Below, in pieces: positions 571 to 64,000 of a stretch of 64,000 bases of DNA (position 1 is its first letter; each line of letters opens with the position of its first letter). The stretch spans positions 1 to 64,000 of the forward strand of contig CBFGIT010000006.1 in the NCBI GenBank assembly GCA_965648905.1, read 5' to 3'. The notes beneath the pieces were generated by a model. That model was not told where the DNA came from. It ran no database searches and saw only the letters and a program-made list of their open reading frames with translations. The position numbers and the translations under genes are program-made. Source of the DNA: a candidate division WOR-3 bacterium (lineage in GTDB: Bacteria; Hydrothermota; Tepidihabitantia; Tepidihabitantales; Tepidihabitantaceae).

Positions 571-586
571 TGGCACTGGGGTTGCA
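571..586 (+). promoter_or_regulatory. sigma54 (-24/-12) promoter of the Tad locus
   Basis: TGGCAC-TGGGG-TTGCA, exact TGGCAC-N5-TTGCW consensus, about 200 nt upstream of the flp pilin. Confidence 0.8.
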
Positions 587-1113: not shown

Positions 1114-1665
1114 ATGACCAATCCCACCGAGACCGTCACCAACGTCTGCACGCTGCTCCTCCTGATACTGAGCGCTTTCTGGGACCTGAAGTACCGCCGG
1201 ATTCCGAACTGGGCCACGCTGCCGGCCATCGTCCTCGGGCTTGGAATCAACGGCCTATCCGGCGGCTGGACCGGGCTCCGGACTTCGGGTTTCGGCTTTC
1301 TGGTCGGCTTTGGTGCGCTGCTCGTGCTGTTTGTCCTCGGCTGGATGGGCGGGGGTGACGTCAAACTGATTGCCGCGGTCGGTGCGCTCAAGGGCTATCC
1401 GTTCATTGTCTCGGCGCTGTTCTATTCGCTGCTCGTGGGGGTGGTAATCGGCGTTGCCATGCTCATCTGGAACCGGAGAGTGCTGCGGACGTTCCGCAAC
1501 CTCTTTTTCGTCATTGGGTCGCGCGTCTGTCGGCTGATTCCCAGGCAGGACTTGAGCCGCGAGGAAACGCAGAAGCTGCCGTTCGGAGTCGCGATCGTGT
1601 TCGGGTCACTCTGGGCACTGATTGCGGGCTACGCTGCCAGCCCGCTGAGACTGGCCGGCCTGTGA
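1114..1665 (+). CDS. cpaA: A24 prepilin peptidase (TadV/CpaA)
   Basis: WDLKYRRIPN and MGGGDVKL aspartate motifs, multiple TM helices, C-terminal LPFGVAI. Confidence 0.92.
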   Translation: MTNPTETVTNVCTLLLLILSAFWDLKYRRIPNWATLPAIVLGLGINGLSGGWTGLRTSGFGFLVGFGALLVLFVLGWMGGGDVKLIAAVGALKGYPFIVSALFYSLLVGVVIGVAMLIWNRRVLRTFRNLFFVIGSRVCRLIPRQDLSREETQKLPFGVAIVFGSLWALIAGYAASPLRLAGL

Positions 1666-2309
1666 TGCGCTGCCCGCGCCTGGTCCGGGACACCGAAGGC
1701 GGTGCGCTGCTTGAGACGGTCATCGTGCTGCCGGTATTGCTGCTGTTCATGATGGTAATCATGGAGCTCTCGTTGATGGTAAGCGCCAAGCAGGTCACGA
1801 ACTATGCCGCGTTCTGCGCGGCCCGCACCTGCGCGGTCTACGGAACCGACTCGACGGCCAAGACCCATCTGGCCGCGGCGATGGCGCTCAGTTCGATTTC
1901 GACCGGGGCACCGACGAACGCGATGGCGGTTCTCAATGCCTACGGTCTGCCCGACCCGAACCAGGCCATGGAGGCGCTCCGCAACGTCCCGGGTCTTGGT
2001 GACAACACCCTGTGGCACACGCGCCTGGCCGATGCCTACCTGCGGACCGGGGTCCCGACCTGCGACACCGGCACGGTCCCGGGCAAAGCCCGCAAGCACG
2101 TCACAGTGAATCTCACCTACATCTATCGCTGCTCGTTTCTGCCCTTCGGGAGTTTCTGGGGCGGTGCGGGCCTGAATTCGTTCATTGCCATGCTCAAAGG
2201 CCTGCCGTTCTACACGATAATCGAGCCCGCGGTCACGCGGCTGGAGAACAGCCGACCGTGGAACGTCCCGCTTCACGGCCGCGCCGTGGTCGACTACTGG
2301 GCAGGCTAG
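1662..2309 (+). CDS. TadE-like pseudopilin
   Basis: G|GALLE prepilin motif, TM helix, then NYAAFCAAR. Confidence 0.85.
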   Translation: MMRCPRLVRDTEGGALLETVIVLPVLLLFMMVIMELSLMVSAKQVTNYAAFCAARTCAVYGTDSTAKTHLAAAMALSSISTGAPTNAMAVLNAYGLPDPNQAMEALRNVPGLGDNTLWHTRLADAYLRTGVPTCDTGTVPGKARKHVTVNLTYIYRCSFLPFGSFWGGAGLNSFIAMLKGLPFYTIIEPAVTRLENSRPWNVPLHGRAVVDYWAG

Positions 2310-59118: not shown

Positions 59119-60477
59119 CTACACGACGCCGTGGTCAATCATCGCGTCGGCGACCTTGACGAAGCCGGCGATGTTCGCACCGTTGACGTAGTTGACGAAC
59201 TTGCCCTCAGTGCCGTACTGGACACACTGGGCGTGGATCGCCTTCATGATACCCTGGAGCCGCTGGTCGACCTCTTCGCGGGTCCAGGAAAGCCGCAGAC
59301 TGTTCTGCGACATCTCCAGACCTGAGGTAGCGACGCCGCCGGCGTTGGCGGCTTTGGCCGGCCCGTAGAGAATCTTGGCGTCCAGATAGGCTGCCATCGC
59401 CTCAGGCGTTGAAGGCATGTTGGCACCTTCAGACACGACGAACACGCCGTTCTTCAGCAGGTTGGCGGCGTCTTTGCCGTTCACTTCGTTCTGGGTGGCA
59501 CTCGGGAAGGCACAATCGGCCTTGTAGTTCCAGAGCGGGTTGTAACCGAGTTTCGGGTCAGCCGGTGTGTAGACCACGCCCTTGTACTTTCGCGCGTACT
59601 CCTCGATGCGGCCGCGCCGGACGTTCTTCAGCTCCATGACGAACGCCAGTTTGTCCTGGTCGATGCCCGCTTCATCATAGATGCAGCCGTTGGAGTCGGA
59701 CAGCGTTACGGCCTTGCCGCCGAGCTGGTTGATTTTCTCAACCGTGTACTGGGCGACGTTGCCCGAGCCCGACACCAGGCAGACCTTGCCCTTCATCGAG
59801 TCACCGCGCGTCGCGAGCATCTCCTGGGCGAAATACACTGCGCCGTATCCGGTCGCTTCGGGTCGGATTAGCGAACCGCCCCAGTTTCGGCCCTTGCCGG
59901 TCAAGACGCCGGTGAACTCGTTGCGCAGCTTCTTGTACATTCCGAACAGGAACCCGATTTCCCGTCCGCCGACGCCGATGTCACCGGCGGGCACGTCGGT
60001 ATCTGGGCCGATGTGACGGAACAGCTCGCACATGAAACTCTGGCAGAACTTCATCACTTCGTTGTCCGACTTGCCCTTGGGGTCGAAGTCCGAACCGCCC
60101 TTGCCGCCGCCCATCGGCAGCGTGGTCAGGGAGTTCTTGAATACCTGCTCGAATGCCAGGAACTTGAGGATGCCCAGGTTGACGGACGGGTGGAACCGCA
60201 GGCCTCCTTTGTAGGGACCGATGGCGGAGTTCATCTCGATTCTGAACCCGCGGTTGACCTGAACTTCGCCCTTGTCGTCGAGCCATGGCACGCGGAACAT
60301 GATTACCCGCTCCGGCTCGGCGATGCGTTCGAGCACCTTGTGCTTCCGATACTTCGGGTTCTTCTCGATGTACGGCACTAGAGACTCAGCCACTTCGCGA
60401 ACCGCCTGGTGGAATTCCTTCTCACCGGGATTCTTCGCGATAATGCCTTCCATGAAGGCATTTACTGCATCAGACAT
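59119..60477 (-). CDS. gdhA: NADP-type glutamate dehydrogenase
   Basis: GPYKGGLRFHPSVN, GGGKGG, DVPAGD, SGSGNVA, LSDS; AGGAGG SD before ATG 60477. Confidence 0.96.
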   Translation of the reverse strand: MSDAVNAFMEGIIAKNPGEKEFHQAVREVAESLVPYIEKNPKYRKHKVLERIAEPERVIMFRVPWLDDKGEVQVNRGFRIEMNSAIGPYKGGLRFHPSVNLGILKFLAFEQVFKNSLTTLPMGGGKGGSDFDPKGKSDNEVMKFCQSFMCELFRHIGPDTDVPAGDIGVGGREIGFLFGMYKKLRNEFTGVLTGKGRNWGGSLIRPEATGYGAVYFAQEMLATRGDSMKGKVCLVSGSGNVAQYTVEKINQLGGKAVTLSDSNGCIYDEAGIDQDKLAFVMELKNVRRGRIEEYARKYKGVVYTPADPKLGYNPLWNYKADCAFPSATQNEVNGKDAANLLKNGVFVVSEGANMPSTPEAMAAYLDAKILYGPAKAANAGGVATSGLEMSQNSLRLSWTREEVDQRLQGIMKAIHAQCVQYGTEGKFVNYVNGANIAGFVKVADAMIDHGVV

Positions 60478-60563
60478 TCTGTCCTCCTGATTAGGTCTGT
60501 CCAGACGGTAAGAATAGAACTGAAAAAGGGTGCTGTCCTGTCGGCGTTGGAACGCCGACGGCA

Positions 60564-60591
60564 ATTATAGCCCGGAGAGGGGCAAGGTCAA
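60564..60591 (-). promoter_or_regulatory. sigma70-type promoter of gdhA
   Basis: TTGACC-N16-TATAAT. Confidence 0.8.
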
Positions 60592-60694
60592 CAATGCGCG
60601 TTGCCTGTGAGCAGCCGGCTCGAACTCACCCCGGTGCCTTGTCCCGTAGACTCGGTCGAGGCAGAGACTCAACGCGACTACCTCCAACCCCTGG

Positions 60695-60733
60695 AAAAGA
60701 GGTCCGCGCCCCGCGGGGGGGGCGGGCGCGGAC
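60695..60733 (-). terminator. Intrinsic terminator of the upstream GDH operon
   Basis: GTCCGCGCCC...GGGCGCGGAC 10-bp stem followed by CTCTTTT. Confidence 0.8.
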
Positions 60734-60765
60734 TGCGGGAGGACAGACCCGCTCAGGACAGACCA

Positions 60766-62082
60766 TCACGGAAATATGCCGCGTTCCTTGTAGACTTTCT
60801 CGAGTCTTGTCAGAGCAACCACGTACGCTGCGGTGCGCCAGTCGACGTCGTACTGCCGGGCTGCTTCACGCACGCGTCCGTAGGCCGCGACGATACGCTT
60901 GTAGAGTTTGCAGTCCACCTCTTGGAGCTCCCAGGATTCGCTGCGCTTGTTCTGCAGCCACTCGAAGTAGCTGACGATGACGCCGCCCGAGTTGCAGAGG
61001 ATGTCGGGCAGCAGGTCGATGCCCCTCTCCTTGAGAATCCGGTCACCGTCCGGGTCGGTCGGCCCGTTGGCACCCTCGGCGACAAGCCGGACGTTGAGCA
61101 GCGGCGCGGTTGAGGCGGTTAGCTGGTTCTCAAGCGCCGCCGGGATCATGATGTCGGCCTTGGTCCTCAGGAAGGCAAGGTGCGTCGAAGCCCGGGCCTT
61201 CTGGTAGCCGGCAACACCGCCCCGGGCCTTGACGTGGCGAGCCAGGTCGTCAGGGTCAATCCCGGCACTGTTCTCAATTACGCCGGTGACATCCTCGACG
61301 GCAACGAGCCGAGCGCCAAAGGGCTTGAGCAACCGGGCGGCCCAGGAGCCGACGTTGCCGAAACCCTGGACGGTGTAGGTGGCCGCTTTGAGGTCAAAGT
61401 TGTGGTCCTTGGCCCATTCGCGAATCATAAAGACCACACCCTGGCCGGTCGCCTTTTCGCGGCCGAGGCTCCCGCCGGCCTCAATCGGCTTGCCGGTGAC
61501 GACGTGCAGCATCCGCTGCCGTTCGTGGGCCGGCATCATTGACTGGTAGGTATCCAGAATCCAGGCCATGATCTGGGCGTTGGTGTTGACATCCGGGGCC
61601 GGAATGTCGTACTCGGGCCCGATGGTGTTGCCGAGGGCAAACGTGAAGCGGCGCGTTATCCGCTCGAGCTCGGTGAGCGAGTACTTGGAAGGGTCGATCT
61701 GAATACCACCCTTGCCACCGCCAAACGGGATGTCAGCGATGGCCGACTTCCACGTCATCCAGGTGGCCAGCGCGCGCACTTCGTCGATGTCCACGGCCGG
61801 ATGGAATCTCAGTCCGCCCTTGAAGGGCCCGAGCGCGTTGTTGTGCTGCACCCGATAGCCGGTGAAGACCTCGATCCGACCGTCGTCCATCTTCACCGGG
61901 AAGTGGACGACTACCTCGTTCATCGTTGTGGCCAGGATTCGACGGATGCTCGGGTCGAGCTTCATCAGGTCTGCGGCCCGGTTGAACTGAGTCGTCACGT
62001 CGTCATAGACGCTGCGTTTTCGAACCTCACCACCCGAGACCCGGGACCGGCGGCTGCGGGTTACTGCTGTTGTCACACTCAT
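60766..62082 (-). CDS. Glu/Leu/Phe/Val dehydrogenase, probable NAD-type glutamate dehydrogenase
   Basis: GPFKGGLRF, GGGKGG, PAPDV, QGFGNVG, acidic VAVED, SYFEW; start ATG 62082. Confidence 0.93.
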   Translation of the reverse strand: MSVTTAVTRSRRSRVSGGEVRKRSVYDDVTTQFNRAADLMKLDPSIRRILATTMNEVVVHFPVKMDDGRIEVFTGYRVQHNNALGPFKGGLRFHPAVDIDEVRALATWMTWKSAIADIPFGGGKGGIQIDPSKYSLTELERITRRFTFALGNTIGPEYDIPAPDVNTNAQIMAWILDTYQSMMPAHERQRMLHVVTGKPIEAGGSLGREKATGQGVVFMIREWAKDHNFDLKAATYTVQGFGNVGSWAARLLKPFGARLVAVEDVTGVIENSAGIDPDDLARHVKARGGVAGYQKARASTHLAFLRTKADIMIPAALENQLTASTAPLLNVRLVAEGANGPTDPDGDRILKERGIDLLPDILCNSGGVIVSYFEWLQNKRSESWELQEVDCKLYKRIVAAYGRVREAARQYDVDWRTAAYVVALTRLEKVYKERGIFP

Positions 62083-62164: not shown

Positions 62165-62515
62165 CTACCGGTACTCCTCGCAGTGCCAGACGCCGGTATC
62201 AGAATTGCGGATGGCACAGTCGTCACGGTTCTCGCAGTTGACGCACAGACCCTTGTACTTGTCCCACTCCTCGAGGTCCTGCAGAGTTGGCGACTGAACC
62301 TCGACCAGTTGCTCTTCGGCAACCGGCGGTACGTAGCAGTCGAACTCCTCGCAGAACAACACCGGCTGTTCGGTGTTTCTGATGTACCCGCAGTTCTTGG
62401 CATGGTTACAGGTCGAACACAACCCGCTGGGGAGCTTGACCTCAGGAGCAGGCCGGTGGGGCTTGGGCAGACTGGGCTTGACTGCTGCTCGACGTCTCGT
62501 TGTGACTACTGACAT
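62165..62515 (-). CDS. Small protein with two GLC-x2-C-x5-C...CEE motifs (putative metal binding)
   Basis: GGAGG SD; GLCSTCNHAKNC...FCEEF and GLCVNCENRDDC...HCEEY. Confidence 0.85.
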   Translation of the reverse strand: MSVVTTRRRAAVKPSLPKPHRPAPEVKLPSGLCSTCNHAKNCGYIRNTEQPVLFCEEFDCYVPPVAEEQLVEVQSPTLQDLEEWDKYKGLCVNCENRDDCAIRNSDTGVWHCEEYR

Positions 62516-62605: not shown

Positions 62606-62621
62606 TGCAAGCACCATGCCA
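62606..62621 (-). promoter_or_regulatory. sigma54 promoter
   Basis: TGGCAT-GGTGC-TTGCA on the minus strand, about 90 nt upstream of ATG 62515. Confidence 0.85.

Positions 62622-62771: not shown

Positions 62772-64000
<1,229 letters not shown>

Follow-up and report, generated by a model that had tools for sequence, protein, structure and literature searches.

The tail of the mRNA of gdh2, one of two adjacent glutamate dehydrogenase (GDH) genes in a 64,000-nucleotide (nt) stretch of DNA from a candidate division WOR-3 bacterium, is probably an antisense repressor – borne in the 3' untranslated region (UTR) and independent of Hfq – of the translation of the second gene, gdhA, with the two isozymes expressed reciprocally. 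The whole stretch (contig CBFGIT010000006.1, positions 1 to 64,000) is referred to here as the window; positions given without a contig or locus name are positions in the window, and the gene set described lies on its minus strand. Most likely the element would stop both GDHs from being made at once. The proposal is carried by a complementarity between the gdh2 3'UTR and the ribosome-binding site (RBS) of gdhA which, judged by comparison of related genomes, is real and under selection.

A sequence-only reading of the intergenic region (60478..60765) had described this complementarity, and every one of its statements about the sequence proved correct on the minus strand (Table 1). The anti-Shine-Dalgarno (anti-SD) hairpin is composed of the arms GCGGG (60752-60748) and CCCGC (60739-60735) and the loop UCUGUCCU (60747-60740); the seed UCUGUCCUCC (60747-60738) spans the loop and the 3' arm and is the exact 10-nt complement of GGAGGACAGA, covering the Shine-Dalgarno (SD) sequence through position -1. 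Display of the seed in a loop, as had been proposed, agrees with the RNAfold predictions, in which both the anti-SD hairpin and the terminator hairpin are present in the minimum-energy and the centroid structures. The element sits between the gdh2 stop and the terminator, which it has in common with gdh2. It lacks a promoter of its own: on this strand, promoter-like sites are limited to that of gdhA itself and a weak one at 60503-60476. The sigma-70 promoter that the same reading had assigned to gdhA, beyond the terminator, is present and is conserved in relatives with the same gene order (TTGAC and TATAAT are invariant in 7/7 aligned tandem loci). A second contact is possible in the gdhA leader, where GGACAGACC is predicted to pair with the UTR by the cofold as well as by the minimum-energy fold of the read-through RNA; copy 1 of GGUCUGUCC is invariant in 3/3 UTRs of g1, the genus of this genome, and GGACAGACC is not conserved in the sister genus.

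Table 1. Features of the gdh2–gdhA locus, with window positions (ORF, open reading frame; aa, amino acids)
Feature	Position	Strand	Basis
NtrC-family sigma-54 activator (response regulator)	62772..64000, runs past window end	-	Sigma54_activat 2.5e-69, Response_reg, HTH_8
Sigma-54-type promoter TGGCAT-N5-TTGCA of the small-ORF/gdh2 operon	62606..62621	-	pattern match
116-aa Cys-rich ORF, first gene of the operon, conserved	62165..62515	-	ORF and family neighbourhood
gdh2, 438-aa hexameric-type glutamate dehydrogenase	60766..62082	-	nearest solved structure T. maritima GDH 1b26/1b3b, E 1e-129
gdh2 stop UGA	60768-60766	-	sequence
Intergenic region gdh2-gdhA	288 nt	-	sequence
GGUCUGUCC copy 1, straight after the gdh2 stop, complement of the leader site 60494-60502	60756..60764	-	sequence
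GGUCUGUCC copy 2	60749-60741	-	sequence
Anti-SD hairpin GCGGG-UCUGUCCU-CCCGC	60735..60752	-	sequence and RNAfold
GC-rich intrinsic terminator with short U tail CUCUUUUCC	60693..60733 (32-nt stem-loop 60733-60702)	-	RNAfold
gdhA own promoter TTGACC-16-TATAAT, between terminator and gdhA	60564..60591	-	11/12 consensus positions
Leader site GGACAGACC, possible second pairing site (-25 to -17)	60494..60502	-	matches both GGUCUGUCC copies
gdhA Shine-Dalgarno GGAGGACAGA and AUG, proposed target	60475..60487	-	SD 60487-60478 abuts AUG 60477-60475
gdhA, 452-aa NADP-specific glutamate dehydrogenase	59119..60477	-	NF006929 equivalog 748.9 bits vs cut-off 536

According to the mechanism that we propose, the last ~75 nt of the gdh2 mRNA (60693-60765, minus strand) would fold into a two-hairpin RNA module, the exposed C/U-rich anti-SD of which would pair with the RBS and start codon of gdhA and block binding of the 30S ribosomal subunit. 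The sigma-54 activator would turn on the operon formed by a small ORF and gdh2, each gdh2 transcript bringing one antisense copy, and this would act either within the mRNA or as a processed 3' fragment, with no need of Hfq. Silencing would fall on the gdhA message, which starts at gdhA's own sigma-70 promoter ~110 base pairs (bp) further on, and a read-through transcript would be silenced in cis through the same pairing; the two GDH isozymes would thereby be expressed reciprocally. We infer that the RNA accumulates, that it pairs in cells and represses, and that the direction is one of catabolic gdh2 versus assimilatory gdhA.

The family sample comprised 44 genomes, with gdh2 in 25, gdhA in 35 and the small ORF in 23. 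The DNA 3' of gdh2 was read at 25 loci from 24 genomes, plus a close metagenome relative (L136); the copy in one genome (G024) is cut by the end of its contig. At seven loci (G000, G052a, G057, G058, G021, G042 and G022) gdh2 and gdhA stand in tandem on one strand, and in 7/7 of these a CCUCC-type sequence, able to pair with the gdhA site of the same locus, is found just before the terminator. The longest Watson-Crick run to the own gdhA site is 11 in G052a, G058 and G042, and 10 in G000 and G021; G057 has 9 pairs, one of them G.U, and G022 has 8 of 9 pairs. The sister genome, G001, is probably tandem too, since both of its contigs end inside the gdh2–gdhA intergenic region, one end reading AGGACAGAAUG. 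These ends (the start of G001:C94 and the end of G001:C62; L025, L021) stop 12 nt past the terminator and 8 nt before the gdhA AUG. In L136, the closest metagenome relative, a different gene lies downstream of gdh2, and the tandem arrangement may be polymorphic at the g1 locus.

Co-variation in genomes with the same tandem pair had been named as a check by the sequence-only reading, and in these genomes the complementarity is conserved and both partners change together. Pairs were counted by anchoring on CCUCC and GGAGG, because a MAFFT alignment of the seven intergenic regions misplaced the anti-SD columns of genus g13 relative to those of g1 and g10. In g1 the RBS (GGAGGA-CAGA) pairs with UCUG-UCCUCC, while in g13 the RBS is GGAGGAUGUG (GGAGGA-UGUG) and the UTR reads CACAUCCUCC (CACA-UCCUCC): 4/4 flanking pairs (CAGA/UCUG to UGUG/CACA) are altered on both partners, and all still pair. 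In g10 the RBS is as in g1 and the UTR is CUGUCCUCCUG, so that the helix is displaced by 1-2 positions in the direction of the SD's 5' side and 11 pairs form; the change that makes the extra pairs is at the same time a compensatory G:C to A:U change in the stem of the little hairpin. When UTRs and ribosome sites are combined across genera the runs fall to 6-8 nt, and the predicted duplexes, which reach -29 to -35 kcal/mol for own partners, come to -16 to -25 kcal/mol for g1/g10 combined with g13 (5-12 weaker).

The architecture of the element differs between these genera. In g1 and g10 the terminator is immediately preceded by a hairpin of 5-6 bp, with a loop of 7-8 nt presenting (U)CUGUCC(U); the anti-SD of g13, and in part that of g14, is predicted to be single-stranded, between an upstream hairpin and the terminator. 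In either case the predicted product is a module of two hairpins, ~75-90 nt long, in which a C/U-rich seed is exposed, as is typical of small regulatory RNAs. Nineteen hairpin columns are 100% identical (54/54 among 3 sequences of g1; 114/114 among 4 sequences of g10). Elsewhere in the g1 and g10 modules identity is 83-90% in the terminator stem, the pairs of which co-vary in relatives, 22-42% in the terminator loop and 35-38% in the tail; the loop that is 22% identical, that of g1, lies beside the invariant anti-SD hairpin. Read from these columns, selection is on sequence, not on fold alone.

The gdh2 protein tree contains two clades (supports 99/98 and 100/99), with the GDHs of other phyla on the same unresolved backbone. 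The element stands behind members of both clades; the complementarity thus follows the gdhA site of the host and not the ancestry of gdh2. Genus g10 holds both clades (G052, G056 and G057 vs G018), a pattern that points to gdh2 having been replaced or transferred in this family. In G018 the order is gdhA, another ORF, gdh2, and UCUGUCCUCU (L118 4530-4545) is found about 90 nt past the gdh2 stop, in an unstructured stretch without a clear terminator; it can form 9 pairs plus one G.U with the gdhA site of its own genome, and lends weak support to the element.

Of 100000 segments of 72 nt drawn at random from the genome, 89 contain a complement of at least 10 nt to the gdhA start region (-25..+6), and of 100000 shuffled versions of the UTR 172 do; the corresponding chance of the g13 match alone is 49 in 100000, and that of the g10 match 6 in 100000. 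A set of 7541 crude candidate start sites (an ORF of at least 80 aa with an SD-like 4-mer) was drawn up for ranking, and 13 of these match the UTR over at least 10 nt, so that by seed length gdhA ties in the top 13. It is true that short complements arise in GC-rich DNA, and the 13 matching sites would fit such an origin. Nevertheless, that the gdhA match arose by chance, or is a neutral relic, without function, left when the region around the gdhA ribosome site was duplicated locally in inverted form, is very improbable against per-lineage odds of 6 to 89 in 100000, an element invariant within genera beside fast-evolving flanks, and changes in the two partners that are compensatory.

A number of observations weigh against repression of gdhA by the gdh2 tail. 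The first concern specificity. The sequence-only reading had expected gdhA at or near the top of a ranking by interaction energy, and here it failed: under energies that include no accessibility model, and among candidate start sites many of which are probably not real, gdhA ranks 198 of 7541 with duplexfold, 207 of 7286 with cofold (free-energy difference, ddG, -14.2 vs a mean of -7.1, standard deviation 3.4), and 48 to 834 of 7541 under other windows and seed definitions. The energy ranking is dominated by long GC-rich imperfect duplexes. The reading as a whole is partly supported, in its selected RNA-RNA complementarity and not in its ranking of the target. The 10-mer GGAGGACAGA occurs 8 times in the genome, and so is not unique, and two of the other copies (C2:66494 and C7:23593) stand at plausible start sites; about 505 long ORFs have a GGAGG site within reach of the anti-SD core, and specificity must therefore come from the flank. 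The second pairing site, GGACAGACC, is checkable in this genome alone, the leaders of G001 and L136 being missing.

Further points of the same kind come from distribution and expression. In 12 genomes of low-GC genera gdhA lies 4-6 kb upstream of the gdh2 operon, and gdh2 ends in plain U-tailed terminators with no anti-SD; G019 and G043 have matches of only 5-6 nt. The two GDHs can thus coexist without the element. The presence of the anti-SD tracks tandem order at the level of the genus, which fits a purely cis role as well. Among the three non-tandem loci that carry the element (L136, G056 and G052b) a matching gdhA leader is available for G052 only, a bin that may hold two strains. All of the genomes belong to one family, and the independent events number two or three. 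Finally, nine metatranscriptome runs from four studies each contained 0.05-0.07 of the sampled words, and the metatranscriptome contigs (4 runs, 3 studies) are confined to conserved coding sequence (60300-60515 and 60759-61100), with none over 60490-60760, and are uninformative either way.

Two sets of candidates belong beside these results. In the low-GC genera, 6-8-nt "complements" between the UTR and gdhA are matches of a U-tail to an A-rich leader; values across genomes are equal or higher, and we regard the matches as compositional. In the genome of the window, GGAGGACAGA stands before a 375-aa secreted-looking protein at C2:66494 (+) and a 90-aa protein at C7:23593 (+), and GGAGGACAG before a 380-aa ORF at C2:106811 (-) that is acyl-CoA-dehydrogenase-like by N-terminal sequence alone; these are possible further targets. 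Two stretches of ~310 bp outside the window that are nearly identical (G000 C5:~170-480 and C6:~104600-104900) both contain GGAGGACAGACC; they have no bearing on the element and look like coding sequences of paralogues.

When a covariance model of the element was run over the 44 genomes, it gave seven matches of 53.6-86.1 bits, all at gdh2 3' ends and all among the sequences from which the model was built; no further copy was found in these genomes, the next match (31.7 bits) being a plain terminator. Wider searches gave a similar picture. A scan of genome contigs with gdh2 found at least 80 loci in many phyla, and among those listed two are in tandem with gdhA, both of them from family members; a scan of metagenome contigs with the small ORF found 16 loci, of which only L136 is a new close relative; and a search at the level of the order added one further gdh2 (G029), followed by the small ORF in reversed order and without an anti-SD. 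At three loci (L136, G056 and G052b), which supplied three of the seven g1 and g10 sequences compared above, the element is intact, and gdh2 is followed by a convergent gene, with gdhA absent over a distance of about 2 kb. The element at these loci is therefore independent of a downstream gdhA.

This persistence at non-tandem loci is also what would be expected if the hairpin were a protein-binding or mRNA-stabilising 3' element of gdh2, its complementarity to gdhA being without regulatory effect. Conservation of the loop at the sequence level would fit a protein site too, and the poor energy rank of gdhA points the same way. Such an element would, however, leave unexplained three features: the match of the g13 loop flank to a changed gdhA RBS flank, the shift of register in g10 with 11 pairs kept, and the presence of a complement to the local gdhA behind two gdh2 clades. 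On balance we regard it as quite improbable.

The alternative put forward by the sequence-only reading itself, that four GGACAGA words are DNA operator half-sites, found no support; the factor bound there would be a transcription factor that regulates gdh2's end and gdhA's start together. The four copies do lie within 290 bp, two in each orientation, and form the sole cluster of three or more within 300 bp in the 3.0-Mb genome; the word GGTCTGTCC has 4 copies in the window against 0.95 expected, a number reached in 2 of 100 shuffles. GGACAGA is nevertheless not enriched, either in the window (13 vs 9.8 expected) or in the genome (353 vs about 380 expected), and with no other cluster there is no sign of a regulon. 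Relatives retain one copy on each side and not four, one of the supposed sites is the Shine-Dalgarno sequence itself, and in g13, where both sides have changed and are still complementary, the specificity of the factor would have had to change as well. An operator of this type is, in our judgement, very improbable.

Antisense repression of gdhA could work in trans, in cis, or in both ways. The sequence-only reading had argued that pairing would be in trans; survival of the element at the three loci with convergent neighbours favours this, while a cis mode that it had left unmentioned – masking of the gdhA RBS on read-through RNA – is predicted equally well by the folding models. In folds of the RNA from the gdh2 stop to gdhA, the anti-SD:SD helix is part of the minimum-energy structure at 3/3 tandem loci, and of the centroids at two or more; the z-scores of the read-through folds are -2.75, -3.86 and -6.72. 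The fold for this genome uses both sites: GGACAGACC is taken up by copy 2, the SD region by copy 1. Read-through RNA would thus be translationally silent for gdhA, since the predicted minimum-energy folds contain the anti-SD:SD helix.

On these grounds the element might be explained as no more than an insulator acting in cis: the terminator would be leaky, the anti-SD would simply mask the gdhA RBS on sigma-54 read-through, gdhA would be translated solely from transcripts of its own promoter, and there would be no trans RNA. The U tails are indeed short or absent (CUCUUUUCC, CUUCUCAUC, ACGUUGGUU), the element is confined to genera with tandem order, and intramolecular pairing of a 3'UTR with an SD has a precedent, as described, in icaR (PMC3868564). 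Nonetheless the terminators, weak as their tails are, have strong stems of considerable length and high GC content, the folds of which have energies of -33 to -53 kcal/mol, and the 19-nt hairpin is fully conserved at the three convergent-neighbour loci while its flanks diverge; cis masking is moreover compatible with a trans mode, and not exclusive of it. We consider a role in cis alone unlikely. In our view a trans mode would be needed to account for the persistence of the element in non-tandem loci, and the restriction of the element to genera with tandem order speaks for a role of adjacency (through local concentration or a cis mode); both modes are likely at work. Tentatively, and with considerable doubt, the proposal may be taken further: the ~75-nt module may be dual, acting in trans from the gdh2 mRNA or a fragment of it and in cis on read-through RNA, so as to keep the two enzymes strictly to one at a time without Hfq, and it may have been kept or acquired behind the two gdh2 clades by following the ribosome site of whichever gdhA is local.

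No Hfq was found in the genome, which is 99.6% complete; this fits Hfq-independent pairing by a C-rich anti-SD. An RNase E/G homologue is encoded. In a search of Rfam 15 no family reached its gathering score; a match to sroE inside the gdhA coding sequence (59382-59465, minus strand; 23.3 bits vs a gathering score of 51, E 0.051) is taken as chance.

Of the two enzymes, gdhA is closest to structures of the E. coli-type GdhA (4fcc/3sbo, E 1e-173). The nearest solved relatives of gdh2 are hexameric GDHs of Thermotoga and Thermus, with the NAD-specific RocG and GudB lower in the list. The cofactor preference of gdh2 is left unassigned, because the names that the depositors gave to the Thermotoga and Thermus structures state none. 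The division into an NAD-type and an NADP-type enzyme made by the sequence-only reading therefore stands for gdhA, which the equivalog model identifies as NADP-specific, and does not stand for gdh2.

The same reading had placed gdh2 in a sigma-54 operon, and this is borne out by a sigma-54-type promoter and by an activator gene adjacent to the operon. The promoter pattern has two matches in the window against 0.10 expected, and RpoN is encoded in the genome; the other perfect match is TGGCACTGGGGTTGCA (571-586, plus strand). The activator (62772..64000) scores under every equivalog cut-off and is thus given no specific name. A strict form of the pattern (TGGCAY-N5-TTGCW) lies 250-950 nt upstream of a gdh2 homologue in 10 of the 80 listed loci, in other phyla (L026, L028, L037, L049, L058, L063, L069, L070, L072 and L074; pattern at 1545-2257, plus strand), the phyla including Stahlbacteria, Zixibacteria, KSB1, Coatesbacteria and Aminicenantes, among others; sigma-54 control of gdh2-type GDHs may be widespread. 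In Bacillus subtilis the catabolic GDH gene rocG is under the control of sigma-L and RocR. It resembles gdh2 in its sigma-54-type promoter and enhancer-binding protein and in the existence of a separate route of glutamate synthesis, a likeness which bears only on the assignment of a catabolic role to gdh2: that role is a guess, made because the sigma-54 context resembles that of rocG. We know of no 3'UTR antisense element in rocG.

A small Cys-rich ORF lies directly upstream of gdh2 in 23 of the 44 family genomes, and there it is always next to gdh2. In the window this 116-aa ORF carries two repeats of the form C-x2-C-x5-C ... C-E-E-F/Y; it has no NCBIfam match and no Pfam-style name, and in a protein atlas it falls only into clusters labelled "hypothetical protein", commonest in WOR-3, Acidobacteriota and Planctomycetota. 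From its sequence it looks like a small metal-binding partner of the gdh2-type GDH.

Several known systems resemble the element in part. In Streptomyces coelicolor the small RNA s-SodF, a processing product of the sodF 3'UTR, represses the isozyme sodN and gives rise to inverse expression of the superoxide dismutases (PMC3919588). As described there, it shares with the gdh2 element an antisense sequence in the 3'UTR of one isozyme that is the complement of the 5' region and RBS of the other, inverse expression of enzymes of the same reaction (here proposed), a GC-rich host, and a first notice as a conserved complementary stretch between sense strands. The differences are that s-SodF pairs over 19 nt, as against 10-11 nt, possibly at two sites, here; that sodF and sodN are described as separate genes, whereas the gdh2 element has as its target the gene that follows on its own strand, making a cis mode possible too; and that s-SodF is backed by Northern analysis, 5' mapping and half-life, whereas the gdh2 element is known from sequence alone. 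In Staphylococcus aureus, the 3'UTR of icaR pairs through a UCCCCUG motif with the SD region of its own mRNA, where initiation is blocked (PMC3868564). There too a C/U-rich anti-SD motif in a 3'UTR pairs with an SD region, as is predicted here; by that account, however, icaR acts on its own mRNA from a long 3'UTR (over 100 nt), whereas the gdh2 module has ~75 nt, ends in a terminator and would act on the SD of another gene with its own promoter.

In Sinorhizobium meliloti, the CCUCCUCCC anti-SD loops of NfeR1 silence gdhA among many targets (bioRxiv 10.1101/2025.11.14.688489). The CCUCC-type anti-SD in a hairpin, the gdhA target (here proposed) and the link to nitrogen status are held in common; NfeR1 is, on the other hand, described as an independent alpha-proteobacterial small-RNA gene with three redundant motifs, and not as the 3'UTR of a rival GDH. 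GlnZ of E. coli is a small RNA derived from the 3'UTR of glnA, the transcription of which depends on NtrC and sigma-54 (bioRxiv 10.1101/2022.04.01.486790). Origin in a 3'UTR, a nitrogen-metabolism gene and a sigma-54 context are shared with the gdh2 element, although in the accessible part of that account gdhA is mentioned as background only and not as a target. GlnZ is Hfq-dependent, in contrast to the situation in this genome with no Hfq found. A literature search, with subscription-only papers outside its scope, found no account in which the 3'UTR of one GDH gene acts on another GDH gene, and a 2022 review (PMC9438474), searched by term, gave 0 occurrences of gdhA or glutamate dehydrogenase. 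The element probably joins the antisense regulators borne in 3'UTRs, of the s-SodF and icaR kind, so far on purely computational grounds. What is unusual about it is the position of its target, the neighbouring gene, which may allow a single element to work in trans as well as on read-through RNA.

Such elements could be found from sequence alone, by complementarity between the 3' and 5' ends of neighbouring genes together with joint change of both sides. The relatives moreover provide natural variants of specificity: CAGA/UCUG and UGUG/CACA should each work with its own partner only. Bacteria with one dehydrogenase that forms glutamate and another that degrades it must keep the two from running together, and the known solutions are transcriptional or allosteric. 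The switch proposed here would need neither an extra gene nor a chaperone, since the repressor of one enzyme seems to be built into the tail of the other enzyme's gene. If this is true, the principle of s-SodF would hold in central nitrogen metabolism too, and in an uncultured lineage at the level of a phylum; and if the dual mode is true as well, the element would be the first RNA-based switch between GDH isozymes, and no regulatory RNA would have been described before it in this uncultured lineage.

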